IMG/VR virus record: IMGVR_UViG_3300045988_074363 | From: a virus | Strand: one strand, 5' to 3' | DNA: 48,689 nucleotides | Part shown: piece after piece, positions 1,040 to 48,689 of the stretch | How positions within the stretch are numbered: position 1 is the first letter of the stretch | How the letters are laid out: each line of letters begins with the position of its first letter | The notes under the pieces: generated by a model | The model's database searches: none | The model's input: the letters and a program-made list of their open reading frames with translations, nothing else | What the model was told of the DNA's origin: nothing | Program-made: the position numbers and the translations under genes

Positions 1040-1087
1040 AAAAAAAAATAAGCGCGGAAGAAGTTTTTCAACTTCTTTCGCACTTAT
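1040..1087 (-). terminator. Rho-independent terminator (long stem followed by T9 on the minus strand)
   Basis: Inverted repeat ataagcgcggaagaagtt / aacttctttcgcacttat (17 of 19 pairing), followed on the minus strand by nine T. Confidence 0.7.
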
Positions 1088-1239
1088 TCTAATATCTCGG
1101 CTTGAAAAATTCAATAGTCAAATGCAACAACTTTTTGCCTATATTTTTGTACATTTTATCGTACCACAACAAGGCCGTCAACATCCACTCTTTTGTTGGC
1201 AGCCTGTTATAACCCCTATTCTATTGCACCGACTATACC

Positions 1240-5144: not shown

Positions 5145-5346
5145 CGTCCTCTCCTCCTTGCTCCGCCCAGTCCGGCCACTCGTCGCCGCCTATGGCGTCG
5201 CGGTATGCTTTGTCGGCCTGCGCAATCTCGTCACGCCCGGTCACAGTGTCACCCAGCTCTGCAAGCCGGGTTGCCATGATCTTGATAACCCGTGCCTGCA
5301 TTTCCGTCACCGTTTCCAGCTCCGCTATGATCTGCAAATGGCTCAT
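5113..5346 (-). CDS. Hypothetical acidic protein (77 aa)
   Basis: ATG at 5346 behind GAGAGGAGG. Overlaps the RT 3-prime end by 98 nt and the XhlA start by 32 nt. No motif recognised. Confidence 0.5.
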   Translation of the reverse strand: MSHLQIIAELETVTEMQARVIKIMATRLAELGDTVTGRDEIAQADKAYRDAIGGDEWPDWAEQGGEDDGEPYHTGGA

Positions 5347-6484
5347 GCTGTGCCTCCTCTCGCAGTTGTTTTTGTTTGGCCTTTTCCAGTTCCGCCCGGT
5401 AAATCTCGTTCAGCCGCCACCGCAGGCTTGCGCTCTCCGTGTGCTTTAGCAGCCCCCTAATGCTGGCAATGCGCCGGTAAAAGTCCTGCCGTGTCATATC
5501 GCCAGCAGCATACAAAGCACTGATCTTGCGCACCTCCCGCTTTATGCGGCGCACGGTGCTTTTCCGCAGCTTCATGTGGGTGGGCCATATCCGTACACCA
5601 ACAAATTCAACCCCTTGGCGCACCGGGCGTATGCTGGTCTTGCTGTTCAAATCAAGCGCCAGTTCCTCCCGCAAGAAAGTTTCCACCGCCGCTTTCCAGC
5701 GGTGCAAGGTTTCCTTGTCCGGCCCCAAGATGATTACATCGTCCATGTAGCGGATATAGTAATGGATTTTCAGCTTGTGCTTGCAATACTGGTCAAGCTC
5801 GTTTAAGTAGATGTTTGCAAATAGCTGGCTTGTCAGGTTGCCTATTGGCATACCCACTTCGTATAGCCATTCTTCCGGCGGCGTGTCCTGCGGTGTCCGC
5901 CAGCGCGGCAGGCCAAACGGCTCTGCTCTGCTGTTCACCACGCCCCGTATAAACGCCATCATGGCGGGGTCTTTCACCCGCCGCTCCAAGATCGCCAGCA
6001 GCTTTTCGTGGTTCACCCGGTAAAAGTATTTGCTTATGTCCAGTTTCAGGCAGTACCAGCCCGTCCCCGGCTTGCGCTGCACTTGGCACATCCAGTATTG
6101 CAGGCGCTTGGCGGCCTTATGGCTGCCCTTGTCCTTTCGGCAAGCGTAGGAATCCTCAATAAAAAGCCTGTCATAGATCGGATTCAAATACAGGTACAGG
6201 CTCCATTGCACAATTCTGTCCGGGTAGTCCAGCGCCATCACCAGCCGCTTCTTGGGCACATACACCCACAGCTTGCGGTATGGCCCCAGCACATAGCTGC
6301 CGTTCATCATACCTTGCTGTATGGTGAACAGGTTATCTTCAAGCCGCGCGGTAAAATTCAAAACCTCGGCTCGGTATCGCTTGCCCTTGCGGGCGTTCCT
6401 GTCGGCCTCAATCAGCCAACCAAAATTGCACACCACCGGCCAAGCGTTTTGAATCACCGTCATTTCCTGCTGACAGTGTTTCAT
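5249..6484 (-). CDS. DGR reverse transcriptase
   Basis: ATG at 6484 (GGAGAG RBS); a GTG at 6526 is an alternative start. Motifs: PKKRLVMALDYPDRIVQWS, LKLDISKYFYRVNH, the DGR-typical GMPIGNLTSQLFANIYLNELD, and YIRYMDDVIILG (YxDD). Lies directly downstream of the TR. Confidence 0.93.
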   Translation of the reverse strand: MKHCQQEMTVIQNAWPVVCNFGWLIEADRNARKGKRYRAEVLNFTARLEDNLFTIQQGMMNGSYVLGPYRKLWVYVPKKRLVMALDYPDRIVQWSLYLYLNPIYDRLFIEDSYACRKDKGSHKAAKRLQYWMCQVQRKPGTGWYCLKLDISKYFYRVNHEKLLAILERRVKDPAMMAFIRGVVNSRAEPFGLPRWRTPQDTPPEEWLYEVGMPIGNLTSQLFANIYLNELDQYCKHKLKIHYYIRYMDDVIILGPDKETLHRWKAAVETFLREELALDLNSKTSIRPVRQGVEFVGVRIWPTHMKLRKSTVRRIKREVRKISALYAAGDMTRQDFYRRIASIRGLLKHTESASLRWRLNEIYRAELEKAKQKQLREEAQHEPFADHSGAGNGDGNAGTGYQDHGNPACRAG

Positions 6485-6665
6485 CCAATAATCTCTCCAA
6501 GCCGTGTGTGGCGTTTCCGCCTCCACGGCAATACAAATTTTTTCCCACCCTGTCTAAGCGGGAACGGAAACAGGCCCCTTTTAGTCTGCACTTCCTGCTG
6601 TACCCCGTAGGCCACAGCCCCCTTGCGGCGCAGAACCACCGCCCTAAATTGGCATTTAACAGACG

Positions 6666-6783
6666 AAAAGCGGAACGGCCCCCGATGTTGCCGTTGGCAT
6701 TGGAGCGCGGGTTGTTCAGGTTGGAATTGAACACCCCGGCGTTGCCGCCATTGTTCCAGTTGCCACCGCGAATCAGGCACCGT
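6666..6783 (-). repeat. DGR template repeat (TR)
   Basis: About 118 bp matching VR1 (7387-7504) and VR2 (45955-46063) except at TR adenines on the coding strand. On the coding strand it reads as Asn-rich GGNWNNGGNAGVFNSNLNNPRSNANGNIGGRSAF, with no upstream protein domain. Confidence 0.9.
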
Positions 6784-6810: not shown

Positions 6811-7197
6811 CTACTTTTTCACGCTGGCAATATACTTGCCCAGCAAGCAGCCGATTTCTGTATTGTACCTTGCCCATGTTTCGTACTGGTGCATGGACAG
6901 CGGCGGGGCAAACTTCGCACCGCAAAGGTCTTTGCTTGCCGCCATCCTCACCAGATTGCGCAGCCATTCCAGTTCCACATCAAGCTCCTGCGCGGTAGTC
7001 TTACGGTAGTATTTCTTTTCCAGCTCAACGGCCAAATGGTACATTTTCAGCATGGAATCCCGCAATCCGTCCGCAAGGTCACGATCTTTACGGCTGAACC
7101 CCTTTGTCAGTGGTCTGCCGTAGTCCATCATTTCCCCGATTTTCTCTTTCAGGCGGAACGGCTCATAGCTGCCCGGCGCGGGCATTTCGCTCTGCAT
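6811..7197 (-). CDS. avd: DGR accessory variability determinant (Avd-like four-helix-bundle protein)
   Basis: 128 aa, ATG at 7197 with GGAGGAGGTG RBS. Helical and basic, and positioned between the target gene and TR as in BPP-1 mtd-avd-TR-brt. Profile similarity to bAvd was judged by eye (LDVELEWLRNLVRMA, EIGCLLGKYIASV). Confidence 0.8.
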   Translation of the reverse strand: MQSEMPAPGSYEPFRLKEKIGEMMDYGRPLTKGFSRKDRDLADGLRDSMLKMYHLAVELEKKYYRKTTAQELDVELEWLRNLVRMAASKDLCGAKFAPPLSMHQYETWARYNTEIGCLLGKYIASVKK

Positions 7198-7377: not shown

Positions 7378-8457
7378 TTATTCGTAAAAAGCGGAACGGC
7401 CCCCGACGGAGCCGTTGGCATTGGAGCGCGGGGAGCGCAGGCTGGAATAGAACACCCCGGCGCCGCCGCCACCGTCCCAGCCGCCACCGCGAAGCAGGCA
7501 CCGCTCGGCCTCGGCGTTGTTGATGTAGAAATAGTCGCCGCCGTAGGTGGCGTCAATGCCTTCACCCGTCAGCGCAGCGTCGGGCAGCATGGCAAGCGCC
7601 TGAAGCAGCAGCTTTGCCGCAGCGCCAATGCTGCTGTCGCAGGTAACATCCTTAAAACTGCAACCGTTCGCGCCGGTGGTGTGGGCAATAGTGGTGCTGT
7701 AAGTCCATTTGCCGCTGATAAAGTCCAGCTTCACGGTGCCCTGCGTGGTGCCGTTGCCGTCCGGGGCCACCAGCTCGCCGGTGGCGGCGGAAATGGCTTT
7801 CCACGCAGCGCTGCTTGCGCTCATGTCACAGGTGGGCGCGGCGGCGTTGTTGTCTGCGATCACCTGCACCTCGCCTTTCACAAGGCGCAGTCCGGCGCAC
7901 CACTCCCACACATTGCCGTTCAAATCCCAAATGCCCTCCAAGGTGCCGTCATGGCTCCAAGTAACGGGGCCGGTGCCGGTGGCAACGCGCCCGGTCTTGT
8001 CATTGTCCTTGCCGGTGGGGATTGCGCGGTACAGGCTTTCGCGGGTGTCCTTGCCGTAGTTGTTGTTGCCGTAGGGTTCCTTGCCCGCCTTGTGGCACCA
8101 CAGGGCAATAGCTGCCCACTCGGCGCAGGTGATCTCGTGGAACTTTCCGCCCTTGGCGCGGTTGTAGCTCACAAAGGTATCAAGGCCCGCCGTGTTAGCC
8201 GGGTTCTCGCCGGGCAGGCTATACGCTCTGCCGTTGTAGTGGCTGGTCTGATACTTCCCAACCCAAAAGCCGTCGATCTCCACGCCGTTCACCCTGAACG
8301 CGGGGTGTACGCTGGTGTCGGCGGTAGAAAGTACATCACACAGGCGGAATTTCGGGATGAACACCATAATGCTCGGCATTTCCTTGTCGTCGTACTTCAT
8401 GGCGTTGTTGGGGCAAACGCTTTTCAGGGCCAGTTCAGCCATATCAAAATTAGCCAT
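7378..8457 (-). CDS. DGR target protein 1 (FGE-sulfatase / C-type-lectin fold). Likely the receptor-binding tail fibre tip.
   Basis: ATG at 8455-8457 with AAGGAGGA RBS. Contains WDLNGNVWEW (FGE/CLec hallmark). The C-terminal 39 codons are VR1. It is the last gene of the tail-fibre region. Confidence 0.9.
   Translation of the reverse strand: MANFDMAELALKSVCPNNAMKYDDKEMPSIMVFIPKFRLCDVLSTADTSVHPAFRVNGVEIDGFWVGKYQTSHYNGRAYSLPGENPANTAGLDTFVSYNRAKGGKFHEITCAEWAAIALWCHKAGKEPYGNNNYGKDTRESLYRAIPTGKDNDKTGRVATGTGPVTWSHDGTLEGIWDLNGNVWEWCAGLRLVKGEVQVIADNNAAAPTCDMSASSAAWKAISAATGELVAPDGNGTTQGTVKLDFISGKWTYSTTIAHTTGANGCSFKDVTCDSSIGAAAKLLLQALAMLPDAALTGEGIDATYGGDYFYINNAEAERCLLRGGGWDGGGGAGVFYSSLRSPRSNANGSVGGRSAFYE
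7387..7504 (-). repeat. DGR variable region 1 (VR1)
   Basis: Manual alignment to the TR gives 17 substitutions (18 with a boundary base). All are at TR coding-strand adenines. It sits at the extreme 3-prime end of the target CDS. Confidence 0.9.
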
Positions 8458-9318: not shown

Positions 9319-9337
9319 GGGTTTGTCCTCCTCTCTT

Positions 9338-34730: not shown

Positions 34731-34738
34731 CCCACGCA

Positions 34739-34816: not shown

Positions 34817-34856
34817 AGATCACCCACACACAACACAAAACAGGAGGCCGCACACT

Positions 34857-35054: not shown

Positions 35055-35062
35055 CCCACACA

Positions 35063-35140: not shown

Positions 35141-35186
35141 CAAAACCACCCACACAAAACACAGCACAAAACAGGAGGCTTTCACA

Positions 35187-36026: not shown

Positions 36027-36923
36027 ATGCAATACTACGAAATCAACGAACAAACCGCCCGCCGGGCAAACGATGTTAATTCTATGAGCGACTACCGCCC
36101 CGGCAGCGCCACGGAAGAATACCGCGCCGCCGTGGACAAGGCCGCCGCGCTGGTACAGGCACGAAAAGCCAAGATCAGCCCCTACTATCACGACAAGCTG
36201 GATGCCCTGCTTGACCGCTACGCCCGCCGCCTTGCCGACTACTACAACGCCTATTACCGCAACGAATCGGCTTGCCCCTCCATCCTTGTTTGCGGCGGCA
36301 GCAACTTCCCGGTACGCAAAAAACAAAAGCAGAACGCCCGCCGCGAATCTCTTTGGCAGGAGTACAAGGAGATTGACGCCATTCTTGACAAAATCCGCAG
36401 CGTTGGCACCGGCGCGGTAGACCTGACCGACCCCCACGCCCGCGAACTGCTCCAAGATCGCTTGCAGCAGGAACAAAACGCCCTTGATTATTGCAAGGCC
36501 GCCAATGCCTACTACCGCAAGCACAAAACCCTGCGCGGCTATGCCAGCCTCACCGATCAGCAGGCCGACGCACTCACCGACCCGGACGCCTTTTCCGTCA
36601 AGCTGTACGGCAAACCCTACGGCGATTTTGAACTGTCCAGCCTGCGCGGCAAGATCAAGCGCATACAAGCCCGCCTTGCCGATCTGGACAAACTGCAAGC
36701 CGCCGCCCAGCAGCCCGACAACACCACGAAATTTGACGGTGGCGAGATCGTGCGTAATGCCGAAGAAAACCGCCTGCAAATCCTGTTCGACGAAATCCCC
36801 GACGCAGACACCCGCGACGCGCTGAAATCCAACGGTTTCCGCTGGTCGCCCCGCAAAAAAGCATGGCAGCGCCAGCTAACACAAAATGCCGAATACGCCG
36901 CCCGCCGGGTGCTTGGTCTGTAA
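36027..36923 (+). CDS. DUF3560-like protein
   Basis: ATG at 36027 behind AGGAGG. The C-terminal LQILFDEIPDADTRDALKSNGFRWSPRKKAWQRQL matches the conserved end of DUF3560 proteins of mobile elements (recalled family pattern). Confidence 0.75.
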   Translation: MQYYEINEQTARRANDVNSMSDYRPGSATEEYRAAVDKAAALVQARKAKISPYYHDKLDALLDRYARRLADYYNAYYRNESACPSILVCGGSNFPVRKKQKQNARRESLWQEYKEIDAILDKIRSVGTGAVDLTDPHARELLQDRLQQEQNALDYCKAANAYYRKHKTLRGYASLTDQQADALTDPDAFSVKLYGKPYGDFELSSLRGKIKRIQARLADLDKLQAAAQQPDNTTKFDGGEIVRNAEENRLQILFDEIPDADTRDALKSNGFRWSPRKKAWQRQLTQNAEYAARRVLGL

Positions 36924-36970
36924 ATTGTGCCCCGGATAACAACCCCAAAACAAAAACCGCGCCGCCCCGG

Positions 36971-36999
36971 TTCACCGCCGGGGCATTGCGTGGTATAAT
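36971..36999 (+). promoter_or_regulatory. Candidate sigma-70-type promoter (TTCACC, 17 nt, TGgTATAAT)
   Basis: -35 TTCACC at 36971-36976. Extended -10 TGgTATAAT ending at 36999. It overlaps a gccccgg/ccggggc hairpin (36964-36984), about 40 nt upstream of the 37038 ATG. Confidence 0.45.
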
Positions 37000-37037
37000 A
37001 GACCCAACACAAAACACAAAACGAAAGGGTGTAACGC

Positions 37038-37373
37038 ATGAATAACGAAAACATGACCGTTTATCCGCCTTACCGCCTTGTGGCCCAATTTGCCGACGGT
37101 GCCCGCCTGCTGTTCGACGGTCTGACCGAAGCGCAGGCACAGCAAAGCATGGAGGCCGCCCAAGCCCAACACGGGGATATTGCGTGGTATGACGGCGTGA
37201 CCGATCTGCACTACGAAAACGGCAAATATTATAAGCTCATACCCCCGCCGCCGGAAGTGGCCTTGATTGACCTCACAGAATACACCGGCCCGCTGGATGA
37301 AAACGGCCTGCCGCCGTCCTTGACCGGCAACCCGCCCGCCAATCACGAAACAGGCCCCGACGATCACAAATAA
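37038..37373 (+). CDS. Hypothetical protein (111 aa)
   Basis: ATG ORF with AAAGGGTG upstream. No motif recognised. Confidence 0.7.
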   Translation: MNNENMTVYPPYRLVAQFADGARLLFDGLTEAQAQQSMEAAQAQHGDIAWYDGVTDLHYENGKYYKLIPPPPEVALIDLTEYTGPLDENGLPPSLTGNPPANHETGPDDHK

Positions 37374-37428
37374 CCCCGCCCCGGACACAAAACCGCCCGC
37401 CGCAATAACAAAACCTGCGCAAACAGCA

Positions 37429-37482
37429 ACACCCCCAGCCAAGGCCACACGGCCCGCCGGGGGTGTTTTCCTGTTGTTTTTT
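37429..37482 (+). terminator. Rho-independent terminator (partial?) within the plus-strand operon
   Basis: acaccccc / gggggtgt outer stem with an inner ggcc-acac-ggcc hairpin, followed by TTTTCCTGTTGTTTTTT. Confidence 0.65.
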
Positions 37483-37539
37483 GCCTGAAATCGCTGTATT
37501 ATAGGCATTGCACAAAACAATTTTGGAGGTTTAGCTATT

Positions 37540-37758
37540 ATGTGGATTTATCGCTCACCAGTTGGCATTTTGAAGATCGTGCGCCAGCCTGACGGCACTT
37601 TCGGCCTGTGCCATAACGAAACAGTTTGGGAGGCTTGCGACACGCCGCAGGCAGAAGCCGACAATGTTTTTTGTCATGTAACAGGCTGTGACGAATGGGA
37701 TTCATGCCCCGACGCTGGCCCCTCCGATCTGTCCGAATGGGAATACATTCCCTCGTAA
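37540..37758 (+). CDS. Hypothetical Cys-rich small protein (72 aa)
   Basis: ATG behind GGAGG. It is the last plus-strand gene. Its 3-prime end overlaps the converging minus-strand ORF. Confidence 0.6.
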   Translation: MWIYRSPVGILKIVRQPDGTFGLCHNETVWEACDTPQAEADNVFCHVTGCDEWDSCPDAGPSDLSEWEYIPS

Positions 37759-38015
37759 CTTTCCGCCAGTTCTGCGGCCATACGCCGCCCATCAATGGTG
37801 CTTACCTTGTTCTTGTGCAAAAGCCGGGTAAGCGCCGTTTTTATTTGTTCCTCGGTTTCCAAATGCGGGTACGCCTCCAAAAATGCCTCGCTTTCCAGCA
37901 AATCCGCCGCTACGCGCATGACCAAGCGCCGTTTCAGTTCGGGGGTTTTACGCAATCCCTCCAAAAGCTGCTCCTCGCTCATGGTTTCACCGTGGGTCAA
38001 AATATCCTCGTTCAT
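37674..38015 (-). CDS. Hypothetical protein (113 aa)
   Basis: ATG at 38015 (GAGG 6 nt upstream); an alternative ATG lies at 38027. The helical N-terminal two-thirds look coding. The last 28 codons overlap 37540-37758 on the opposite strand. Confidence 0.55.
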   Translation of the reverse strand: MNEDILTHGETMSEEQLLEGLRKTPELKRRLVMRVAADLLESEAFLEAYPHLETEEQIKTALTRLLHKNKVSTIDGRRMAAELAESYEGMYSHSDRSEGPASGHESHSSQPVT

Positions 38016-38247
38016 ATCCTGCCTCATTTCTGCCCGGTTCACCGCCGGGCGTTTTTTCGTTGTCGATGATCTTCCAGTTTCTCCGCAGGGCGGCCAGCGT
38101 GGAATACGGGCAAAAGCCTTGCCCCTGCACATCCCGCACACACAAATACCCGCTCCGCCCGGCGCTGATCTCGATTTCATAGTATTTCTTGCTGACAAAC
38201 CCGCAAGAGGTCTGCCCCACAAACTGCGCCGTCACGATCTGCGCCAT
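37987..38247 (-). CDS. Hypothetical protein (86 aa)
   Basis: ATG at 38247, 3 nt after the upstream stop. Confidence 0.55.
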   Translation of the reverse strand: MAQIVTAQFVGQTSCGFVSKKYYEIEISAGRSGYLCVRDVQGQGFCPYSTLAALRRNWKIIDNEKTPGGEPGRNEAGYERGYFDPR

Positions 38248-38249
38248 GC

Positions 38250-38504
38250 TCACCCCTCCGCCGATTCCCGCAGCCAATCCAAGCAGCACTTTATGCAGGT
38301 TTTCGCGTCACCGGGGCCGGGGCATTTATCGTCGTCGTGCGGGCACATGATCGCAACCGCCAGCGCCTCGTCGTCCATTTCCCTGATCTTGTCCGCATTG
38401 GTAAAAACCACATCCGGGCAATGCTTCTTTCGTGCCTCTTTGCAAGCCTTGCCGCCATAGTCCAGCAGGCAGCCGGGCACCCTGCACCTGTCACACAATT
38501 TCAC
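38250..38504 (-). CDS. Hypothetical Cys-rich protein (84 aa)
   Basis: GTG at 38504 (GTGA overlap, GGAGGC RBS). Contains 11 Cys in CxxC-like spacing. Confidence 0.65.
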   Translation of the reverse strand: MKLCDRCRVPGCLLDYGGKACKEARKKHCPDVVFTNADKIREMDDEALAVAIMCPHDDDKCPGPGDAKTCIKCCLDWLRESAEG

Positions 38505-39261: not shown

Positions 39262-39744
39262 TTATGTACGCGCGCGCGTGGCCCGCTCGGCCAACTCGTC
39301 CACCATCGGCACTTCTTCCAGCACCTCGCCCAGCCGTTCCACAGCTCTGCCGTGCCAATTCCGCGCCGTGCTGTCCGGCACACCCAGCTTGCCGGAAATT
39401 TTTGTCCAACTGTACCCACGAATCAGCCGCATGATTATGACCGACTTGTACTTACCGTTCACCGCGTCCAGTGCGCCCCGGATGTTGGCCGCGTCGCCCT
39501 CCAAGACTTCCACCTGAACGCTGATCTCCTGCAGGCGGCTCTTCACGCCGTTTTCGATCACGCGCACGGCCAGCGCCTCGGTGGGGTTGCCGGGTGCCGA
39601 ACTATGCGGCATACCGTCCATAGCAAGGCCGCCCAAGCCGTTGTATTCATCTTCCAGCGCGTCACGCTCCCGTTTAAGCAGCTTGATAGCCTCCGGGATT
39701 CCCCCGTAATATTTGACGATATGCTTTACCGTTTCGCTCCGCAT
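39262..39744 (-). CDS. Phage transcriptional activator with a sigma-70 region-4-like HTH (RinA/ArpU-type)
   Basis: ATG at 39744 behind GGAGGTG; an alternative ATG lies at 39759. The C-terminal YKSVIIMRLIRGYSWTKISGKLGVPDSTARNWHGRAVERL is a sigma r4-type HTH. Confidence 0.7.
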   Translation of the reverse strand: MRSETVKHIVKYYGGIPEAIKLLKRERDALEDEYNGLGGLAMDGMPHSSAPGNPTEALAVRVIENGVKSRLQEISVQVEVLEGDAANIRGALDAVNGKYKSVIIMRLIRGYSWTKISGKLGVPDSTARNWHGRAVERLGEVLEEVPMVDELAERATRART

Positions 39745-39769
39745 ACCCAGCACCTCCATTGCCTGTAAG

Positions 39770-40399
39770 TCAGAACAGCGTCTTGCCGAAAACCGGCTCC
39801 GTTGCTCCGCTGGTGTCCACCTCCACCGTGTCGTGAATGATCTGCCCGATCTTCCGCGCCAGCACGGCGTACCCGTAATACTCGCCGTCCTTGGTACACT
39901 CGCCAAACTGGCGGAAATTGTTCTCGGTTTCTTCCACCACCACGGCCACGCTGTCAGCGCCAAAGCCCAGCGCCTTGTGCATGGCCTGCACATAGATTTT
40001 CATAACCGTGTCCGCCGCCTCACGCCGGGCGGCCAGCTGCACGGCCTCCCGCTCCGTCTTGGGGGCAGACAGCGCAGGCAGCAGAAACGGCGGCATGATC
40101 TGCTGCACCGCAGCGGCCAGCGTGGCCTTGGCCTGCTTTTCGCCGCGCACCTGCTTGTCCAACGCATACTTGGCCGAAAACTCGTTGGCACAGTCCACAA
40201 CGCGCCGCAAACGCATTTCTCCAATGCCGTATTTGTCATAGATTGCCGCCAAAATGCACACAATCAGCACATTTCCCGTTTCTTCCCGGTGATCGTCCAG
40301 CCGTTCCGCCTCGGTCTTGCGGGTACGCAAAAAGCGCCGCTGCGCCTGTATGGCAGCGTTCCGGGCGAAATAACGCGGTGTAGTATGCCGTCTTTTCAT
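39770..40399 (-). CDS. Hypothetical protein (209 aa)
   Basis: ATG at 40399, ATGA-coupled to the upstream gene. Confidence 0.75.
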   Translation of the reverse strand: MKRRHTTPRYFARNAAIQAQRRFLRTRKTEAERLDDHREETGNVLIVCILAAIYDKYGIGEMRLRRVVDCANEFSAKYALDKQVRGEKQAKATLAAAVQQIMPPFLLPALSAPKTEREAVQLAARREAADTVMKIYVQAMHKALGFGADSVAVVVEETENNFRQFGECTKDGEYYGYAVLARKIGQIIHDTVEVDTSGATEPVFGKTLF

Positions 40400-42868: not shown

Positions 42869-43168
42869 TGCGGGGGCTACACCCCCGCACCCCTGTATTA
42901 TTTTCTTCTTGCTGGAATACCACACTCTGCTCCGCAGGCAAGGGGAAACACCGGGCGGCTCCCTTTCCGTCCTGCTGTTGGTCAGGCAGTGCCCGCCGCC
43001 CTCGTTTCCCCCTTGACCCCTTTCCCCGGCATTTCTGCCGTGGTGCTTAACTTACTACTGGTATACCAGCCCCAAACCGCCCAAGGCGGTATTTTTTTAG
43101 CCCGCCGCAGCGCGGCAAGGCTAAAAAATCAAGCAGCCGGGCGGGGCACAATCCCGCTCCACGCCCGG
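42869..43168. promoter_or_regulatory. Highly structured non-coding region upstream of the Rep gene. Candidate replication origin and/or promoter.
   Basis: It holds four structures. First, an 8-bp stem tgcggggg/cccccgca (42869-42889). Second, a 20-bp imperfect inverted repeat caaggggaaacaccgggcgg / ccgccctcgtttcccccttg (42939-42958 and 42996-43015). Third, the palindrome tttttagcc-c-gccgc-agc-gcggc-aa-ggctaaaaa (43092-43128). Fourth, a ccgggcg/cgcccgg hairpin (43137-43168). Confidence 0.5.
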
Positions 43169-43194
43169 CCTGTAAGGCTTATTCTGTTTTCGGC

Positions 43195-44019
43195 TCACCC
43201 GTCATAGCACCCACACGGCGCACCGCACAGGCACCCGCCCGGTGCCTCCGGGAAAAGGTCGTCAAAGGTCAACTGCGCTTTTTCAAACTCCTGCGCTTCA
43301 ATAAATTCGTCGTGGTAGCTTTCCCATGACCACTTGCGGCCAAGCCCTTTAATGCTGGTCAGGCTGTCCGCCGCGTTGTGTTCCATGTCAACCGCCCGCT
43401 GAAATAGCTCCGGGTTGTTCTCCCACAGCGCTTGAATTTCTTTCTTTTTCATCGACGGGCAGAAATAGCAGCTCGACTTGCCCGGCTTTGGCAGCCCGGC
43501 CCGCTCGATCACGCGCACACATTCGGCTCTATCCCAACCCCATTCATAAAGCGGGTAGTGCTTTTCATATTTCTTGTCTACCTCGTCAATGGCAGCGGCG
43601 TGTTGAATACGGCGGGTTTCGCCCGCGTCATAGCCAATGTACTTGTTGACGCGGCCACCGCTTTTCCATACCTCCACGCAGGGCGGATAGTGGTTGCAGA
43701 ATTTTTCCTGCGTTCCGATCTTGTGCTTCAAAGAACACTTCTTGAAGCCGTAGGCGATAGAGGGCAGCGTGTGCGAACGGAAACATTCTTCCTCCAAGGT
43801 CAGCCGGTTTCCGTCCTTGTCGGTATAAAATACCGGCGTGATCTTGGGTAGGCCGTGCTTGTCCAGCCAAGCATTGAACACCCGGATAAATTCATAGGTG
43901 TGCGGCTGTTCGCCGCCCGTGTCTGCAAACAGGATAAGATCAATCGGGATTTTATGCAGATACATCCCGATAATCATTGCGGTGCTGTTTGTACCACCGC
44001 CGAAAGAAACAATGTTCAT
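43195..44019 (-). CDS. PAPS reductase-family (adenine nucleotide alpha-hydrolase) protein
   Basis: ATG at 44019 behind GGAGGG; the ORF track uses a TTG at 44025. Has a PP-loop (VSFGGGTNST) and a C-terminal Cys cluster (CLCGAPCGC). Confidence 0.8.
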   Translation of the reverse strand: MNIVSFGGGTNSTAMIIGMYLHKIPIDLILFADTGGEQPHTYEFIRVFNAWLDKHGLPKITPVFYTDKDGNRLTLEEECFRSHTLPSIAYGFKKCSLKHKIGTQEKFCNHYPPCVEVWKSGGRVNKYIGYDAGETRRIQHAAAIDEVDKKYEKHYPLYEWGWDRAECVRVIERAGLPKPGKSSCYFCPSMKKKEIQALWENNPELFQRAVDMEHNAADSLTSIKGLGRKWSWESYHDEFIEAQEFEKAQLTFDDLFPEAPGGCLCGAPCGCYDG

Positions 44020-44037
44020 TTCCAACCCTCCGCCGGT

Positions 44038-44481
44038 TTACAATTTCTTGCCCCACCTTGTTTTCATTTCATGTGGGTACTGATCTTCTGTTTTAGGCTT
44101 GCTCCTGCCGTTCCATTCCAGCCCACCAGCCTTGCCCTCACAGGTAAAGCCCGCAGCCTGCAGCGAAACGCCCGGCTCACTCGCCAAAATGTAGGTGATG
44201 ATCTTTTTATATCCCATATCCCGCGCAGCTCTCGCCGCTGCTGCATACAGGATAGAGCAGGCATTGCGGGTTCCGTCCGTACACAGGCGGTTCACTTCAA
44301 GCGTTGTGCCGTTGTCCAGCCTCCGGCTTACCGGCCTGCCACAGATTGCAACGCCCACCAGCTTGCCGTCCTGTGCAACGCCAATGCTGAACTTATGCCC
44401 GGCAACCTGCTTGTGGTGTCGGTGGTACTGCTGCACAAACCCGTTTGCCTCCCGTAATGTGACCGGCACAAGTTCAAGCAT
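44038..44481 (-). CDS. XF1762-family / GNAT-fold protein
   Basis: ATG at 44481 behind GGAGGG. VTLREANGFVQQYHRHHKQVAGHKFSIGV...LVGVAICGRPVSRRLDNGTTLEVNRLCTDG matches the recalled XF1762 family pattern. Confidence 0.7.
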   Translation of the reverse strand: MLELVPVTLREANGFVQQYHRHHKQVAGHKFSIGVAQDGKLVGVAICGRPVSRRLDNGTTLEVNRLCTDGTRNACSILYAAAARAARDMGYKKIITYILASEPGVSLQAAGFTCEGKAGGLEWNGRSKPKTEDQYPHEMKTRWGKKL

Positions 44482-45076
44482 GGTATCCCTCCGCACTTTC
44501 CGGGCGCTCGGTTCGTTCAAACTCGATCACCCACACATCCGGGTTTGCTTTCCAGCCCATCGTCTGAACGCTGGCCGCCGGTAGTGTACTATCCCACAAC
44601 CTGCGAAACGATACCATGTAGCGCCACCACTCGTAGGCGTCGCGGTTTGCACACGGTCTTTCTGTGCAGCCCTCTTGTGCCCATGCACATTTACAGCCGC
44701 CCGGCCTGTTTTGTGGCCTTACGCCCTCTTTTTGGAAGTCCACAACCTCCATACCTCGAAGTGACCCGCGCTCGACGCTTTTTACTCGCAGAAAAATCCT
44801 TGCAATGTCCTTGCCCATGTGGATTGACGGGTGCCACCTGTCGTCGCCGTCCATTTCCGGGCAAGCTCCTTGCGGCCAGTCTGCCCGGTAGTGCGTTCCG
44901 AAAGTGTTAATACACCATGTTTCCCGCACATACAGGATGTCGCCCGCCACAAAGGGCGGTTTCTCACCCTTGGCAATCCTCCGGGTGCAGGTCTTTTCGC
45001 CTGCCAAGATTGCCCGCACCATTTCCGTGTTGAATAGAATGGGCTTTAGGGTGCCGGGCGCACTACTCGTTTTCAC
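44474..45076 (-). CDS. ASCH-domain-like protein
   Basis: GTG at 45076 behind GGAGGA. ILFNTEMVRAILAGEKTCTRR...GDILYVRETW is typical of phage ASCH/PUA-like proteins. Confidence 0.7.
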   Translation of the reverse strand: MKTSSAPGTLKPILFNTEMVRAILAGEKTCTRRIAKGEKPPFVAGDILYVRETWCINTFGTHYRADWPQGACPEMDGDDRWHPSIHMGKDIARIFLRVKSVERGSLRGMEVVDFQKEGVRPQNRPGGCKCAWAQEGCTERPCANRDAYEWWRYMVSFRRLWDSTLPAASVQTMGWKANPDVWVIEFERTERPESAEGYHA

Positions 45077-45729
45077 TTTCTGCGTCCTCCATCCCGATCT
45101 GCTCCGCGTCCTCGTCCTGCTTGTCCGGGTCTGCCTCGTCTAAAGCCCGTTCCTGCTCCCGCATATACTGGCTCACACAGGCGCTTTCAAACTCGCTCAA
45201 ATCCTCCAAGAACTGCTTGGTTATGATCTTCAATGGCACAAACCCGGCCAGCACCTCAAACCCGTCTTTGATAACCACATAGGGCGCACCGCCAGCGGTC
45301 TTGCGCACAACGGTCTGTATGTAGTCGCTGTTCTTGACCACATCTGCAATGGGTGCAATCAGCGCGGAATCGTAGAAGATCAGCTCCCCGGCGTTGCCAT
45401 ACATAAGGCCAACCAGCCCCCATGCCCTTGTAGAACATTTCCAGCGGCACCCGCCGCGCCTCCTGTTCCAGCGGGTCAGCGTCCGTCAGGTTCACGCCAA
45501 AGGCCGCCCCTGCGGTTTCGGCGTACTTCTCGTCAAAGAACATCTTTTCCCACGCCTTGCTGTCAATGTCCAGCACTGCGCCTACCTGTTCCTTGCCCTC
45601 CATTTCGGGCAGATCCGTGGCGTTGTACAGCGCCAAGCGGGTGCCCAGCCAAATGCCGCTGTCGTCCGCATGGATTACCATGCAGTAGCTTTCGCTCTTG
45701 GCCCGTTTCACAAACTTGCTCAACTTCAT
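45063..45729 (-). pseudogene. Hypothetical gene split by a +/-1 frameshift at a G5 run (C5 on the plus strand, 45417-45421)
   Basis: ATG at 45729 behind AAGGAG. After the G5 run, the original frame decays into a Cys/Arg-rich tail that stops at 45256. The neighbouring frame is open and protein-like through to 45063 (LVGLMYGNAGELIFYDSALIAPIADVV...). Confidence 0.55.
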
Positions 45730-45742
45730 GGCGCGGCTCCTT

Positions 45743-45877
45743 TCAGCCCAGCAGGCACAGCACACACAGTTTGATAATTGCCAGCGGCCCCAGCACGGCG
45801 GCGATTGCCCACGCAATGCAGGCAAAGATCACCAGCAGGCCAACCAGTGCGGCGAAAATAGCTTTCAAAACTTCCAT
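45743..45877 (-). CDS. Small hydrophobic membrane peptide (44 aa); not in the ORF track
   Basis: ATG at 45877 behind GGAGAAATGAGGG. Sequence is MEVLKAIFAALVGLLVIFACIAWAIAAVLGPLAIIKLCVLCLLG. Lies directly downstream of DGR target 2. Confidence 0.55.
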   Translation of the reverse strand: MEVLKAIFAALVGLLVIFACIAWAIAAVLGPLAIIKLCVLCLLG

Positions 45878-45892
45878 AGTGCCCTCATTTCT

Positions 45893-45926
45893 CCGCCGCG
45901 CTATCGCTTGGCGGTCAGTGTTTCAG
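45893..45926 (-). promoter_or_regulatory. Conserved element 3-prime of VR2 (GC stem with GATA loop plus CTGAAACACTGA)
   Basis: The minus strand reads ctgaaacactgaccgccaagcgatagcgcggcgg. It is the counterpart of 7330-7363. Stem ccgcc/ggcgg plus an inner g-c pair that is a-t in the VR1 copy. Confidence 0.5.
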
Positions 45927-45937
45927 TGTCCGGCGTT

Positions 45938-47116
45938 TCAGTGCTTCTTGAAATAAGCGGAACGGCCCCCGATGCTGCCGCCGGCATAGGAGCGCGGGTT
46001 GCCCAGGCTGGAATTGAACACCCCGGCGCAGCCGCCATAGTTCCAGCGGCCACCGCGAATCAGTATGTACTCGCCCTCGGTGCTGTCCACATAGCACCCG
46101 GCCTTTTCCTCCCCGGCAAACAGGGCCAGCGCCCGTAACTGCTCACTGTCGCAGTCCATGCGCACATCTGCCCACTCGCTGCCGTCGTAGTCGTGGTGAA
46201 TGTTCGGGTTGGTGGTAAAGGTGATCTTTCCGCGGTGTACGGAAACATACAGCGGGCGGCCCTCCACATCGGTGATCGGTTTCCAGCCGTCGCCGCACTC
46301 GGTCAAATCCGTTTCGGGCAGGGCCGCGTTGTTGTTCTCCGCTGCCCACAGCGCCCCGTCACGGATTCTTACACCACGGGCAAACTCCCAAATGTTGCCG
46401 CAAAGATCATGTACGCCGCTGTCCGTGTGGTCGTGCGTCCAAGTGGCCGGGCCGCTGCCGGTCAGCGTTTTGTAGCTGTCCTCAATGATAACGCCCCGCT
46501 CCTTGTCGTCACCGTGCCAGTGGGAACAATTCGTGTTGCCGTGGGGCAGGGTGCCCAGCTTCAAACTGGTGTCAGCCAGCAAGCCCCACTCCGCCGCCGT
46601 CAGGCAGTGCCAGCCCTCGCCCTTGGAGAAACACGCCTGCGCGAAATCCTCCATCGTGATATTTGTGACCGGCTCCTGCAATGGCAGGCTGTACGGCTTG
46701 CCGTTAATCATGGTGTTTTCATAGACAGAAATATAAATCTCGTCATACACCTCGCCGCCGATGATGAACGCCGGGTGTACCGCGTCACTTCCGCCGAAAA
46801 GTTCCTTGTTAGTCACGCGGCGGAACCTGTGCATGATGGAGGGAATACCCGCGTTGTCGTAGATCGCCACCACATCATGCTCCACGCCCGGCGCGGCCTG
46901 CTCTCTGCGGCGCAGCTCCTCGTCGTTGCGCAGGATTTCCCGCTTGATCTCCTCCGGCGCGTCGCTCAAATCCTCGGCACAGCCGCAGTTTGCGGCGCAG
47001 CGCTCCGCGTCCTGCTGCACATAGCCCAAAAAGGCGGCGGCCTGCCTACCTACAAAATCGCTCTTGCCCTCGGCGGCCATACTAAGGCCAAAGTATTTGC
47101 ATAGAATCTTTGCCAT
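45938..47116 (-). CDS. DGR target protein 2 (FGE-sulfatase / C-type-lectin fold) with a unique N-terminal domain of about 95 aa
   Basis: ATG at 47116 behind AAAGGAGA. Paralogous to target 1 from IPSIMHRF onward. Contains HDLCGNIWEF. The C-terminal 36 codons are VR2. Confidence 0.9.
   Translation of the reverse strand: MAKILCKYFGLSMAAEGKSDFVGRQAAAFLGYVQQDAERCAANCGCAEDLSDAPEEIKREILRNDEELRRREQAAPGVEHDVVAIYDNAGIPSIMHRFRRVTNKELFGGSDAVHPAFIIGGEVYDEIYISVYENTMINGKPYSLPLQEPVTNITMEDFAQACFSKGEGWHCLTAAEWGLLADTSLKLGTLPHGNTNCSHWHGDDKERGVIIEDSYKTLTGSGPATWTHDHTDSGVHDLCGNIWEFARGVRIRDGALWAAENNNAALPETDLTECGDGWKPITDVEGRPLYVSVHRGKITFTTNPNIHHDYDGSEWADVRMDCDSEQLRALALFAGEEKAGCYVDSTEGEYILIRGGRWNYGGCAGVFNSSLGNPRSYAGGSIGGRSAYFKKH
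45955..46063 (-). repeat. DGR variable region 2 (VR2)
   Basis: Manual alignment to TR 6668-6776 gives 12 substitutions, all at TR coding-strand adenines. The substitution pattern differs from VR1. Confidence 0.9.
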
Positions 47117-47121
47117 TTTCT

Positions 47122-47664
47122 TTATCTCCTTTCGCCCACGGTAACATAGGCGGTTTTTCTGCTGTTCAGTTCCAAATCCACCGGCGCTTTGCAGGCAAGG
47201 CAGGTGTGCGTCACCCGGTCAGCGGTCAGATTTGTTTTGTAGCTGAAACTCTTGCCGCACTTGCAGTGCATAAACAGCGGGCGCAACTTTTCAAGCGGCG
47301 TTTCGTGACCGCACTCGCTGCACTTGTAGCCGTATGTTTCATGCTTGGCACAAAACGCCTTGATCGCGCCGCACTCCTCGCACTGCACAATCAAGAAACC
47401 TTTGTACGGCCCTTGGTCTGCGTCCGGGTCTGTGCTTTTCCAAGTGTCGCGGGCACCGAACATCCGCTCCACACGGCTGCCGCGCCTGTCCTCCCGGTGT
47501 GGTGCTGCCCGGCGCTCCGTGTTGGCCGGGCCGCTCTCGCCTGTCAGCGGTGCCACCTGCCCGGTGGCCGTGTCCTCCAAGAACACCTTGCCGCCCTGCA
47601 CATACGCCCGGAACGCGCCGCGCTGGCACATCCTGCGTACATCCGAAATACTGGTACTTTCCAT
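47122..47664 (-). CDS. Hypothetical multi-zinc-ribbon protein (180 aa)
   Basis: ATG at 47664 behind AGGAGG. Zinc-ribbon pairs are CEECG...CSECG, CKCG...C.AC. Confidence 0.75.
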   Translation of the reverse strand: MESTSISDVRRMCQRGAFRAYVQGGKVFLEDTATGQVAPLTGESGPANTERRAAPHREDRRGSRVERMFGARDTWKSTDPDADQGPYKGFLIVQCEECGAIKAFCAKHETYGYKCSECGHETPLEKLRPLFMHCKCGKSFSYKTNLTADRVTHTCLACKAPVDLELNSRKTAYVTVGERR

Positions 47665-47682
47665 TGTCTTGACCTCCTGTGT

Positions 47683-48375
47683 TTATGTTAGATGGAACAG
47701 GCTTGTTTGGCTGGTGTAGTCCAAAAAGCGCTGTTCCTCTGCAGCGTAATAGATCGGGTCGATCTCAAACCCGATAAAATCCACCCCGGCCTCGTAAGCG
47801 GCAATTCTGCTGCTCCCGCTCCCCAAGTGTGTGTCCAGCACCCGGCACCCCGGCGCGGCGTAGTTCTGAAAAATCCAGTCATACAGCGCCACCGGCTTTT
47901 GCGTCGGGTGGATTCTCTGCTCGTTCAGCTTTTTGTTGCCCTGCATGATATGCCCCTCGGCAACGCTCTTGCCTTGCAGCATACCGTTCCACATGAACCT
48001 GAACAGGCGCACGGTGTTGAATAGGTCAGTTGCGGCCAGCTCACAGTCTGAAAAGCTGGTGCCTTTCTTGCACTTATCCCACACGATTCTGCCGGGCGCA
48101 AACTCATAGTTGAAGTAGTTGCAGCCCCACACAATGTAATGCTTGGCTACCCGGCGCAGCTCGTCAAAGTATGCCCGCCCCGGTATCTCCCACACAGGTG
48201 ATACCGGGTAGTCGCGGTGCACGCCGATCTTGCTAACCTTGCTGCCGTAATAGCCCCGGCGCTCCGGCCCGCTGAAATACGGCGGGTCAACCACCGCAAG
48301 ATCAAAGAACCCGTCCGGGAATTGCGCCATGCCTTTCATGCAATCCATGTTGTAGCACTGGTTTAGTTCAAGCAT
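47683..48375 (-). CDS. DNA methyltransferase, N6_N4_Mtase family (DPPY motif)
   Basis: FDLAVVDPPYF is motif IV. HPTQKPVALYDWIFQNY and VLDTHLGSGSSRIAA form the AdoMet-binding region. Confidence 0.88.
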   Translation of the reverse strand: MLELNQCYNMDCMKGMAQFPDGFFDLAVVDPPYFSGPERRGYYGSKVSKIGVHRDYPVSPVWEIPGRAYFDELRRVAKHYIVWGCNYFNYEFAPGRIVWDKCKKGTSFSDCELAATDLFNTVRLFRFMWNGMLQGKSVAEGHIMQGNKKLNEQRIHPTQKPVALYDWIFQNYAAPGCRVLDTHLGSGSSRIAAYEAGVDFIGFEIDPIYYAAEEQRFLDYTSQTSLFHLT

Positions 48376-48633
48376 TGATGATCTCCGTTGTAGATAACGA
48401 CCATCGACGGAAACGGTGCGGGCGGGAATCTGTTCCCGTCCTCGTCCTCAAAGTGCAGCCGCCCACGCAAAAAGCGTATTTCTGCTTTCCCGTATATGTA
48501 GTCGTGGAAGTAGGCCGTGTCTGTCCTTGCCGGTATCAGCAGAACCACCGTTGTTCCGGCTTGCGCCTCCTCGTAGGCTTTGCGCACCCACGCGCCCAGC
48601 GCCCGGCCATACGGCGGGTTGCAAAATACGCTG

Positions 48634-48642
48634 CCCCCCCCC
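48634..48642 (-). repeat. Homopolymeric tract (C9 on the plus strand, G9 in the methyltransferase sense strand)
   Basis: Counted directly: ctg-ccccccccc-gatatt. It lies at the exact start of the 55-bp assembly overlap. Confidence 0.9.
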
Positions 48643-48689
48643 GATATTCCACGGGGCGGTTAGGCCGTCGGTTTCCGGGGTGTAGAAGT
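48635..48689. repeat. Terminal direct repeat, copy 2 (identical to 1-55)
   Basis: See the 1-55 feature. Confidence 0.85.

Follow-up and report, generated by a model that had tools for sequence, protein, structure and literature searches.

Evidence for a second, remote target of the single DGR of a phage, encoded among DNA-modification genes

Introduction

Phage DGRs are commonly taken to diversify receptor-binding tail proteins. The Mtd system of Bordetella phage BPP-1 resembles the one described here in its adenine mutagenesis, its Avd, the GC-rich end of its VR and the CLec fold carrying the VR (Liu 2002; Guo 2011, PMC3240598), and its VR is likewise followed by a hairpin whose loop has 4 nt (PMC3240598), but the system has a single target instead of two. 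Like target 2 of this study, TaqVP from a Thermus aquaticus prophage (5VF4; Handa et al. 2019, PMC6328139) consists of a single domain with the FGE-type CLec fold and has a C-terminal VR. Unlike target 2, it is the adjacent and sole target of its DGR, and it has no equivalent of an 85-aa N-terminal module, the match beginning at target 2 residue 77. The phage DGRs nd4 and nd12 (tentaclins; Babkin et al. 2023, PMC10743442) likewise pair a single TR with two CLec-containing targets, but both lie inside the cassette and have different topologies, one of them with an N-terminal VR (PMC10743442).

Targets located away from the cassette have also been described. Wu et al. 2017 (PMC5758913) reported phage DGRs in which one target beside the cassette and another away from it belong to the same prophage (<50 kb), at survey level and without gene-context analysis. 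A 2025 study found distal second VRs beside methyltransferases in four gut prophage species, without a functional test; the situation is the same in the phage studied here. Faecalibacterium phage FP_Lagaffe (Lagaffevirus) has a DGR with two variable regions, in gp26 and gp40 (PMC11792537; PMC5883640), and adenine-specific variation at both has been published (Gulyaeva et al. 2024, PMC11792537). The arrangement is thus already in the literature, as two VRs in Lagaffe (2024), in gut prophages (2025) and as non-adjacent prophage targets (2017). The original prediction had regarded a diversified non-structural target as unusual; remote second targets had, however, been reported for related gut phages.

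Lagaffe and the gut phage studied here are collinear, in the order tail/baseplate, target 1, Avd, TR, RT, lysis, IS30-family integrase, HTH, target 2 and early genes, and both targets are Mtd/TaqVP-like in each phage. Target 1 is 54% identical to Lagaffe gp26. Over the genes with a tblastn match, amino-acid identity is only ~23-58%, so the two phages look like members of different genera. They also differ at target 2: Lagaffe gp40 lacks the N-terminal module and carries a helical extension of ~115 aa after the VR, which makes its VR internal, and the neighbouring genes are exonuclease, Gam and ERF in Lagaffe but methylases, a zinc-ribbon protein and Mom here.

Results

A single DGR cassette and two variable repeats

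The window, meaning the whole 48,689-nt stretch of phage DNA analysed, has a direct terminal repeat of 55 bp and closes to a circle of 48,634 bp. Its features are listed in Table 1. The DGR cassette avd-TR-RT spans 5249-7197, with the TR between avd and the RT gene. The RT carries the DGR-diagnostic IGxxxSQ motif, and its start is likely the ATG at 6484.

Table 1. Features of the window that bear on the DGR and its two targets.
Feature	Position	Strand	Remarks
Left prophage end / integration junction	1079..1101	-	L015 and L004 lose homology exactly here
IS30-family DDE transposase, the phage integrase	1293..2441	-	NCBIfam transpos_IS30, 248 bits vs cut-off 80
Holin	2545-2919
Endolysin	2946-4463
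DGR reverse transcriptase	5249..6526	-	RVT_1 E=6e-20; IGNLTSQ and YMDD motifs present
TR, between avd and RT gene	6668..6776	-	24 adenines, all at codon position 1 or 2 of the target frame
avd, accessory variability determinant	6811..7197	-	Pfam bAvd E=9e-16; NCBIfam DivGenRetAVD E=2e-16
Hairpin 3′ of VR1	7331-7350
Target 1 CDS, 359 aa, end of baseplate/tail module	7378..8457	-	phrog_2889 E=3e-116
VR1, 3′ end of target 1	7389..7497	-	92/109 vs TR
44-aa hydrophobic peptide	45743-45877		downstream of target 2
Hairpin 3′ of VR2, CCGCC-AA-GCG[ATAG]CGC-GGCGG	45893..45914	-	DNA fold prediction; candidate target-recognition element
CACTGAAA-type short repeats, between VR2 and hairpin	45915..45943	-
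Target 2 CDS, 392 aa, TaqVP-type CLec/FGE-fold DGR variable protein	45938..47116	-
VR2, 3′ end of target 2	45955..46063	-	97/109 vs TR; adenine sites polymorphic
N-terminal extension of target 2, residues 1-85	46862..47116	-	absent from target 1
Double zinc-ribbon protein	47122..47664	-	directly upstream of target 2, 5-nt gap
N6/N4 DNA methyltransferase	47683..48375	-	Pfam N6_N4_Mtase E=6e-13; same tight gene string as target 2
Dam-like methylase	spans circular junction

An ungapped scan of both strands was done with the 109-nt TR as the query and a threshold of at least 60 matches. Only three sites passed, all on the minus strand: the TR itself, VR2 and VR1. VR2 had been predicted to be the TR with 12 substitutions, all at adenines and in a pattern unlike that of VR1. 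The computed alignment bears this out: 12/12 mismatches fall at TR adenines, none at any other base, and the mismatch patterns of the two VRs are unlike each other. With 24 A in the 109-nt TR core, the chance of 12 mismatches all falling at adenines is ~1.3e-8. In VR1, the 17 mismatches to the TR are likewise all at TR adenines. Thirteen TR adenines occupy codon position 1, eleven position 2 and none position 3. Identity to the TR drops to background directly 5′ of 46063 and 3′ of 45955, giving VR2 sharp edges; the homology of VR1 to the TR reaches 6 nt further 5′. The stop codon of target 2 lies 17 nt past the end of VR2.

TR, VR1 and VR2 have the same GC-rich 16-mer at their 3′ end, GGGGGCCGTTCCGCTT, beyond which their flanks part at once; from this shared sequence, the 16-mer may act as an IMH-like end. 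Next to each VR come a CTGA-rich stretch, which is conserved, and a GC hairpin with a loop of 4 nt, which the TR does not have. In related lineages, an equivalent hairpin with the same loop length stands behind each VR but behind none of the TRs, and 4/6 pairs of the consensus hairpin show compensatory changes. Support for the hairpins comes from this conservation and covariation, since folding the VR flanks as single DNA sequences gave z-scores that were not significant. On the 3′ side of VR1, positions 7352-7378 hold a region resembling the CACTGAAA-type repeats, which turn up again in both relatives and Lagaffe. DGR hairpins were described as GC stems of 7-10 bp that have a GRNA loop and lie at a variable spacing from the VR (Guo 2011, PMC3240598), and the hairpins flanking the VRs here agree with these features. 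They lie ~40 nt from the VR end, as against 4-34 bp in the published set (PMC3240598).

Variation at both repeats across relatives

VR2 was compared among 17 close relatives and VR1 among 14. Every TR-adenine site of VR2 was polymorphic (24/24, mean of 3.46 alleles), compared with 7/85 non-A sites in VR2 and 163/1070 sites outside the VR (Fisher p ~1e-18). Pairwise difference in target 2 amounted to 0.62 at A sites vs 0.046 outside the VR. The window differs from one relative (L001) at a single position outside the VR and at 12 A sites, and from another (L002) at 2 positions outside the VR and 14 A sites. All 24 adenine sites of VR1 were polymorphic as well, with a diversity (0.59) on par with that of VR2. 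TR-adenine positions are the sole hypervariable positions in VR1 and VR2 across natural populations. The dN/dS ratio of target 2 was 0.125 in the body, 0.18 in the N-terminal module and 5.1 in the VR, and outside its VR the gene is under purifying selection.

VR2 is therefore very probably a genuine and currently active second target of the single DGR of this phage. Its activity in this particular population is suggested by comparisons between samples. The prediction that one TR and RT diversify two paralogous CLec-fold proteins draws support from the population data, from the conservation of the cis-elements and from homology to TaqVP.

If the mechanism follows that of BPP-1, TR RNA would be reverse-transcribed with misincorporation at adenines, and the cDNA would home in trans to DNA bearing an IMH-like end and a hairpin. 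Because homing would take place in trans, the cDNA could rewrite VR2 both when the genome is circular, from 9.2 kb away, and in the prophage, from ~39 kb.

Two old paralogues, one with an accessory module

The profile match of target 2 to TaqVP (5VF4) covers residues 77-392 (E=2e-49). Its AF2 model also matched 5VF4 in Foldseek (E=1e-20, TM 0.66); this model is of moderate quality (pLDDT 68, <40 in the VR, and poor in the linker too) and serves for fold assignment only. Target 2 further matches phrog_2889, whose function is not assigned there, and, weakly, Pfam FGE-sulfatase and a "tail protein" PHROG. It is a single-domain TaqVP-type binding protein with a C-type-lectin fold, whose ~13 variable residues would form the ligand site. 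By homology to TaqVP, the VR would occupy the C-terminal ligand-binding face of the FGE-type fold.

Target 1 and target 2 share 33% protein identity over 340 aa and fall into separate clades (bootstrap 500/500), with Lagaffe gp26 grouping with target 1 and gp40 with target 2. The pair goes back to an old duplication that several phage genera have retained, the Lagaffe gp26/gp40 pair being one example. Within a genome, the residue states of VR1 and VR2 were uncorrelated (3.0 vs 2.9 of 13), in a sample (n=4) too small to exclude a shared ligand.

A unique N-terminal domain of ~95 aa had been predicted for target 2. Its absence from target 1 was confirmed, but it is shorter, ~85 aa, as homology starts at residue 86. 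This lineage-specific extension consists of a conserved module of ~45 aa, predicted to form a beta-hairpin (residues 2-17) and a helix (19-43), followed by a variable acidic linker. A module carried on such a linker looks like a docking handle. A search with residues 1-80 against 1.84 billion representatives returned 27 hits, all apparently target 2-family proteins or fragments, with no other architecture carrying the module and no functional lead among them. An HMM of the module detected no paralogue among the window ORFs, and no known virion anchor matched it in the HMM and sequence searches.

Target 2 lies outside the structural module

Across the circular junction formed by the 55-bp terminal repeat, the TR and VR2 are 9,238 nt apart, close to the ~9.2 kb given by the original prediction. 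The other statements on the surroundings of target 2, namely its remote position outside the structural module and its two neighbours, a zinc-ribbon protein upstream and a 44-aa membrane peptide downstream, are borne out too. The genes upstream of target 1 are baseplate-type. Target 2 is flanked by methylase/zinc-ribbon genes and by Mom/Rep genes, outside the tail-fibre/baseplate module, and its homologues lie outside the structural module in all 15 lineages examined. Their same-strand neighbours include methyltransferases, SSB, RecU, helicase loaders, primase, MazF, Rep and integrase, and a single packaging/virion family figures among the 25 commonest neighbour families. Across many lineages, target 2 keeps its place behind the lysis genes, IS30-family integrase and methyltransferases.

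The gene string is tight and operon-like: the Dam-like gene overlaps the second methyltransferase gene, 18 nt separate the latter from the zinc-ribbon gene, and target 2 follows after the short gap given in Table 1. A promoter/terminator scan of 43000-48689 gave counts at or near shuffle expectation and was uninformative on the transcription unit. Linkage of the zinc-ribbon gene and target 2 is kept in five lineages, and the two are nearby in three others. Searches of PHROGs, Pfam and NCBIfam with the zinc-ribbon protein returned nothing meaningful; it has no named homologues, and some of its relatives are fused to dUTPase.

In one of these five lineages (L026), target 2 seemed to lie ~2.6 kb upstream of tail-end genes and target 1. 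We rejected this as evidence of a structural role, as it is a decayed prophage; its locus contains a methylase-sheath fusion and an RT-transposase fusion.

An IS30-family gene serves as the phage integrase

Target 2 had been predicted to be separated from the cassette by the lysis cassette, an IS30 element and two methyltransferase genes. The first and the last are in place, but the IS30-family gene is not an insertion element: it is kept in relatives, and prophage/host junctions adjoin it. L007 and L046 carry it at the same place (97%), as does Lagaffe (gp37, 50%; annotated integrase), and it is the phage's own integrase. At the left prophage end, the flanks of L015 and L004 are unrelated to each other, and L007 and L046 are continuous across this site. 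Judged by eye, the flank of L015 carries a host gene resembling a GH2 beta-galactosidase.

Discussion

As in Lagaffe, a second ancient paralogue is diversified here as intensely as the tail-module target, from the early/DNA-modification region and across the integration junction from the cassette. We give roughly even chances to target 2 being a second diversified receptor- or glycan-binding protein, which its accessory module would hold on the virion. It would be made along with the DNA-modification genes, which in the circular form come downstream of the late/lysis genes. Other members of the fold family are encoded in tail-fibre loci (BalMu-1, VHML, Klebsiella phages), the BFVD matches include tail fibre proteins, target 2 has no signal peptide, and in both genera an accessory module sits on an acidic linker, N-terminal here and C-terminal in Lagaffe gp40. 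A virion role is disfavoured by the zinc-ribbon/dUTPase context, which is unlike a fibre-chaperone setting, by the placement outside the structural module in every lineage examined, by an N-terminal module that matched no known virion anchor and by the uncorrelated residue states of VR1 and VR2 (n=4). Compared with Mtd, target 1 shares the location in the tail module but target 2 does not, and the N-terminal trimerisation/attachment domains of the Mtd type (beta-prism, beta-sandwich) are not found in target 2, which has a TaqVP-like domain and the beta-hairpin/helix module instead. A structural target 2 would mean that the gene for a receptor-binding protein can sit at a distance from the tail genes, with consequences for automated annotation and host-range prediction.

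Target 2 could also be an active DGR target that acts away from the virion, as an intracellular or lysis-released hypervariable binder of variable host or competitor factors such as defence proteins, a reading that we hold only tentatively and consider rather doubtful. It would be co-expressed with a counter-defence/DNA-modification cluster (Dam-like, N6/N4 methylase, Mom-like and PAPS-reductase-like). The placement in a methylase/replication region, kept across lineages, is in line with a non-virion role, as are the tight operon-like string, the zinc-ribbon partner with its dUTPase-fused relatives and the lack of a signal peptide in target 2. The 2025 gut-prophage study likewise interprets distal second VRs beside methyltransferases as belonging to an arms race. 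All this is guilt by association, however, and the fold family is otherwise tail-associated; in Pfam, PHROGs and NCBIfam, target 2 belongs to no defence or anti-defence family. Nor does the neighbourhood fix timing or location, since DNA-modification genes are late in some phages, such as mom in Mu. The narrower version, in which an intracellular hypervariable lectin-fold binder works with the methylase/Mom cluster and the zinc-ribbon partner and is tuned by the DGR against defence or competitor factors, is in our judgement unlikely. If true, it would amount to a counter-defence repertoire on the phage side, long kept beside a conventional diversified tail protein. Any non-structural role would extend the uses of phage DGRs past host recognition. 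Lagaffe is cultured and inducible, so the role of target 2 is directly testable.

That VR2 is a relic, either a former DGR target or the product of gene conversion between the paralogues, in which diversification has ended, is highly improbable. Gulyaeva et al. observed no read-level signal for Lagaffe_CP in culture (PMC11792537), as would suit a relic. Against it, near-identical target 2 genes differ at 12-14 of 24 adenine sites but at 1-2 of 1,070 sites outside the VR, adenine-only differences from the TR are not what gene conversion from VR1 would give, the hairpin is intact and conserved, and the diversity of VR2 equals that of VR1. The similarity of VR2 to the TR is almost certainly not mere general paralogy between two FGE-like genes: the two targets are indeed paralogues, but the 109-nt block ends sharply at background, and 33% protein identity outside it stands against 89% of nucleotides inside, with all mismatches at TR adenines.

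One TR matches two VRs

The 109-nt core of the template repeat (TR) was used to scan both strands of the window with a threshold of at least 60 matches. Exactly three places reached this threshold: the TR itself, VR2 in target 2 (T2, 97/109) and VR1 in target 1 (T1, 92/109). All 12 mismatches of VR2 and all 17 of VR1 fall at TR adenines, and the substitution patterns of the two VRs are not the same. Because only 24 of the 109 bases are adenines, the chance of finding 12 out of 12 at these positions is ~1e-8. Similarity to the TR falls to background directly beyond the VR2 block at both edges (homology of VR1 to the TR reaches 6 nt further 5'), while the T1 and T2 proteins are 33% identical over 340 residues. 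Even divergence along the whole gene, which would explain the match without a VR, is therefore excluded, and the original prediction of a second VR with 12 substitutions at adenines and a pattern of its own is confirmed. A 55-bp direct terminal repeat is present at the window ends, and the window therefore assembles as a 48,634-bp circle. The distance from TR to VR2 over the junction is 9,238 nt, close to the ~9.2 kb first estimated. The DGR core is complete, and the gene neighbourhood of T2 had been listed correctly.

DGR cassette, target genes and genes around target 2. From RT to target 2, genes are read along the minus strand, over the circular junction.
Feature	Coordinates	Strand	Remark
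Target 1	7378-8457	minus	carries VR1
VR1	7389-7497	minus
Hairpin of VR1	7331-7350		GC stem, 4-nt loop
bAvd	6811-7197		DGR core
TR	6668-6776	minus	DGR core
RT	5249-6526		DGR core; motifs IGNLTSQ and YMDD present
Three small ORFs			between RT and endolysin
Endolysin	2946-4463		glucosaminidase-amidase-LysM
Holin	2545-2919
IS30-family transposase	1293-2441
Small HTH protein	771-1007
Dam-like methylase	1-185 and 48363-48689		window ends; frameshift-split at C-homopolymer
N6/N4 methylase (MT2)	47683-48375
Double zinc-ribbon protein (ZnR)	47122-47664		end 5 nt ahead of target 2
Target 2	45938-47116	minus	392 aa; carries VR2
VR2	45955-46063	minus
Hairpin of VR2	45893-45914		GC stem, 4-nt loop
2-3 CACTGAAA / CTGR-type short repeats	45915-45943 (VR2 side) and 7352-7378 (VR1 side)		VR end to hairpin
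44-aa hydrophobic peptide, then small ORFs			downstream of target 2
phrog_874 protein	44474-45076		downstream of target 2
Mom-like protein	44038-44520		downstream of target 2
PAPS-reductase-like PP-loop protein	43195-44025		downstream of target 2
Rep protein, HD protein, DUF1064 protein			downstream of target 2
Sigma-70-region-4-like protein	39262-39993		downstream of target 2
FP_Lagaffe gp40	L060 32599-33060		VR internal; ORF runs ~115 aa past VR (acidic DSDTLDDLDSD linker and helical domain)

Both VRs are diversified among related viruses

We retrieved 59 related viral loci, 17 of which carry the same 1,179-nt T2 gene without indels. Among these 17 relatives, every TR-adenine position of VR2 is polymorphic (24/24, with a mean of 3.46 alleles), as are 7/85 non-adenine positions of VR2 and 163/1,070 positions of T2 outside the VR (Fisher p ~1e-18 for the excess at adenine sites). 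In the T2 gene, 12 adenine sites and a single position outside the VR separate the window from relative L001; for L002 the counts are 14 and 2, respectively. TR adenines take codon positions 1 and 2 only. Across 14 relatives, the adenine sites of VR1 are likewise all polymorphic (24/24), with a pairwise difference of 0.59 at these sites vs 0.025 outside the VR. This polymorphism at both VRs supports the proposal that a single TR/RT cassette diversifies two paralogous CLec-fold targets, the second of them remote. The dN/dS ratio reaches 5.1 in VR2, compared to 0.125 for the body of T2 and 0.18 for its N-terminal extension; T2 is therefore functional and constrained except in its VR.

When clustered at 90% identity, the closest homologue of T2 falls in a cluster (P0001) of 14,370 distinct member sequences, a size consistent with hypervariation. 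Other clusters are also very large (P0062, 6,007; P0080, 2,957), and such clusters may be a database-level mark of DGR hypervariation.

A repeat-plus-hairpin element follows the VRs

TR, VR1 and VR2 have the GC-rich end GGGGGCCGTTCCGCTT in common, and the sequences part immediately after it. About 40 nt downstream of VR1 and VR2, a common stretch of CACTGAAA-like repeats was found, followed by a GC-stem hairpin whose loop is 4 nt long. This arrangement occurs after every VR of both types in all related lineages and is absent 3' of their TRs. In an alignment of 13 elements, 4/6 consensus hairpin pairs show compensatory double changes. The experimentally defined BPP-1 recognition element is described, in the relevant passages of Guo et al. 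2011 (PMC3240598), as a 7-10 bp GC stem in which structure and not sequence counts, with a loop of 4 nt (GRNA), at no fixed distance from the VR, and as occurring in other phage DGRs. The hairpin downstream of VR1 and VR2 agrees with this description. Targeted terms retrieved no account of the short repeats from the same passages; these repeats may be a binding site. They are kept across lineages (L018-L059, and at 22560-22600 and 32720-32760 in Faecalibacterium phage FP_Lagaffe, L060), and some homologues have them inside the coding sequence, where they encode a C-terminal tail (…TLNPDTLTVER…).

Target 2 belongs to an ancient paralogue clade with accessory modules

A T2 profile built from 40 full-length homologues matched TaqVP (PDB 5VF4, E=2e-49), with the match covering T2 from residue 77 to its C-terminal end. 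TaqVP is the variable protein of a Thermus aquaticus prophage DGR, monomeric and with a single domain of the FGE-type C-type-lectin fold (PMC6328139). The AlphaFold model of T2 (pLDDT 68, pTM 0.66) also matched 5VF4 (Foldseek E=1e-20), as well as, in BFVD, FGE-like and tail-fibre proteins of phages. The N-terminal extension that had been proposed is present, at ~85 residues instead of ~95, and comprises a conserved module of ~45 residues, for which a beta-hairpin and a long helix are predicted, and then a variable linker of acidic character. No paralogue of the extension was found within the window, and its 27 hits among 1.84 billion representative proteins are all apparently T2-type proteins or fragments.

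The phage is a distant collinear relative of FP_Lagaffe, with ~23-58% amino acid identity in matched genes. Both phages carry VR1 in T1 (gp26 in Lagaffe), adjoining baseplate genes, a TR flanked by avd and the RT gene, and VR2 in T2 (gp40), located past the lysis genes and a gene of the IS30 family that is annotated in Lagaffe as the integrase. Unlike T2, gp40 is devoid of the N-terminal module and has its acidic-linker and helical extension 3' of the VR; no obvious hairpin directly follows the gp40 VR. A distal target with an accessory module and a tail-module target without one are thus found in both genera. When six T1/T2 pairs were analysed by neighbour joining, VR left out, T1-type and T2-type proteins formed two clades (bootstrap 500/500), including gp26 and gp40, respectively. 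Since each clade has a Lagaffe member, the duplication is older than the split of these genera.

Sections of three published accounts describe related cases: many phage-associated DGRs with an adjacent and a non-adjacent target in the same prophage (Wu et al. 2017, PMC5758913), phage DGRs with two targets, whose role is unclear there (Babkin et al. 2023, PMC10743442), and the second VR of Lagaffe, with adenine-specific variation at both VRs and the proposal that two VRs double host-range adaptation (Gulyaeva et al. 2024, PMC11792537). The two-target arrangement is therefore already known, and the window is a well-supported further case. In these sections, targeted terms retrieved nothing on the division into T1 and T2 clades, on accessory modules of distal targets, on the linkage to the zinc-ribbon gene, on where T2 lies with respect to the integration junction, or on the repeat-plus-hairpin element common to both VRs.

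Genomic environment of target 2 and prophage ends

Synteny mapping revealed the gene order Dam-MT2-ZnR-T2-...-Rep-HD-DUF1064 in close relatives, with ZnR-T2-...-Rep kept in lineages to ~66% identity. In five relatives (L007, L046, L059, L037, L045), an RT is found 6-9 kb upstream of T2. We then considered 86 same-strand ORFs flanking T2 in 15 diverse lineages. The families found were DNA methyltransferases, SSB, RecU, DnaC/IstB-like loaders, primase, Rep, ParB, glycosylases, MazF, SAM synthetase, IS30-type transposase domains and 3D-domain proteins, the last read as lysins. Among the 25 most frequent neighbour families, only one is a packaging family and none is a tail or capsid family. Homologues of ZnR are without annotated function; P0225, P0236, P0237 and P0244 carry a dUTPase domain (PF00692) joined to the ribbon region. 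Likely DNA-modification genes form a cluster (43195-45076) just downstream of T2.

L026 (IMGVR_UViG_2788500350_000005; loci 4072-5598 and 8444-10021) was rejected as an exception to this placement, being a prophage in decay that sits in the genome of an isolate and has fused, truncated genes. A C5-methylase N-terminus is joined there to half a tail-sheath gene, and a DGR RT N-terminus to an IS30-type transposase C-terminus. The prophage still has its avd, its TR and the genes of both targets.

The IS30-family gene encodes a bona fide transposase. Its original reading as an inserted IS30 element was not borne out, as the gene is kept in place in relatives and in Lagaffe, and a prophage junction adjoins it. 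In relatives L015 and L004, homology to the window stops exactly at ~1101, just past this gene, and the flanks beyond are unrelated to one another (that of L015 resembles, by eye, a GH2 beta-galactosidase-like host gene). No such break occurs in L007 and L046, which are continuous through this position. The phage therefore appears to integrate via the IS30-family enzyme, a DDE transposase that would serve as its integrase, and the two different host flanks suggest low target-site specificity. In the prophage, T2 is ~2.6 kb from the left end and the DGR cassette near the right end, ~39 kb off. In both the circle and the prophage, the cDNA must act in trans.

Possible role of target 2

The main interest of the case is the testable question of the distal target's function. 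We put the chances at about even that T2 is a second binding protein displayed on the virion. Its fold family otherwise occurs in tail-fibre loci, its accessory module, borne on a flexible linker, resembles a docking handle, and inspection of the sequence revealed no signal peptide, the lack of an export signal being in line with such a role. The circular form also puts T2 and the DNA-modification genes directly downstream of the late/lysis genes; DNA-modification genes are late genes in some phages, as is mom in Mu. That T2 is instead an intracellular or counter-defence binder seems rather unlikely, even with its conserved placement among methylase and replication genes, a zinc-ribbon partner whose relatives are fused to dUTPase, and an N-terminal module unlike any known virion anchor. 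Other roles take up the remaining probability. VR1 and VR2 residues agree at 3.0/13 positions within a genome vs 2.9/13 between genomes (n=4) and, being no more alike within than between, lend no support to a common ligand.

Other features of the window

The Dam-like N6-adenine methyltransferase occupies two frames, with the break at a C8-C9 homopolymer inside the terminal repeat; the split may stem from a mistake in assembly or sequencing, or the tract may be phase-variable. In relatives, tblastn matches to the N- and C-terminal parts of the gene follow one another, and several relatives (for example L001, L004, L006) have additional N-terminal fragments. Only one block of genes is on the plus strand (34137-38460). 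It converges with the early genes, diverges from those for packaging, and includes a primase-like protein (35907-36923; phrog_19458, E=3e-136) as well as a weak anti-restriction-like protein (34137-34730).
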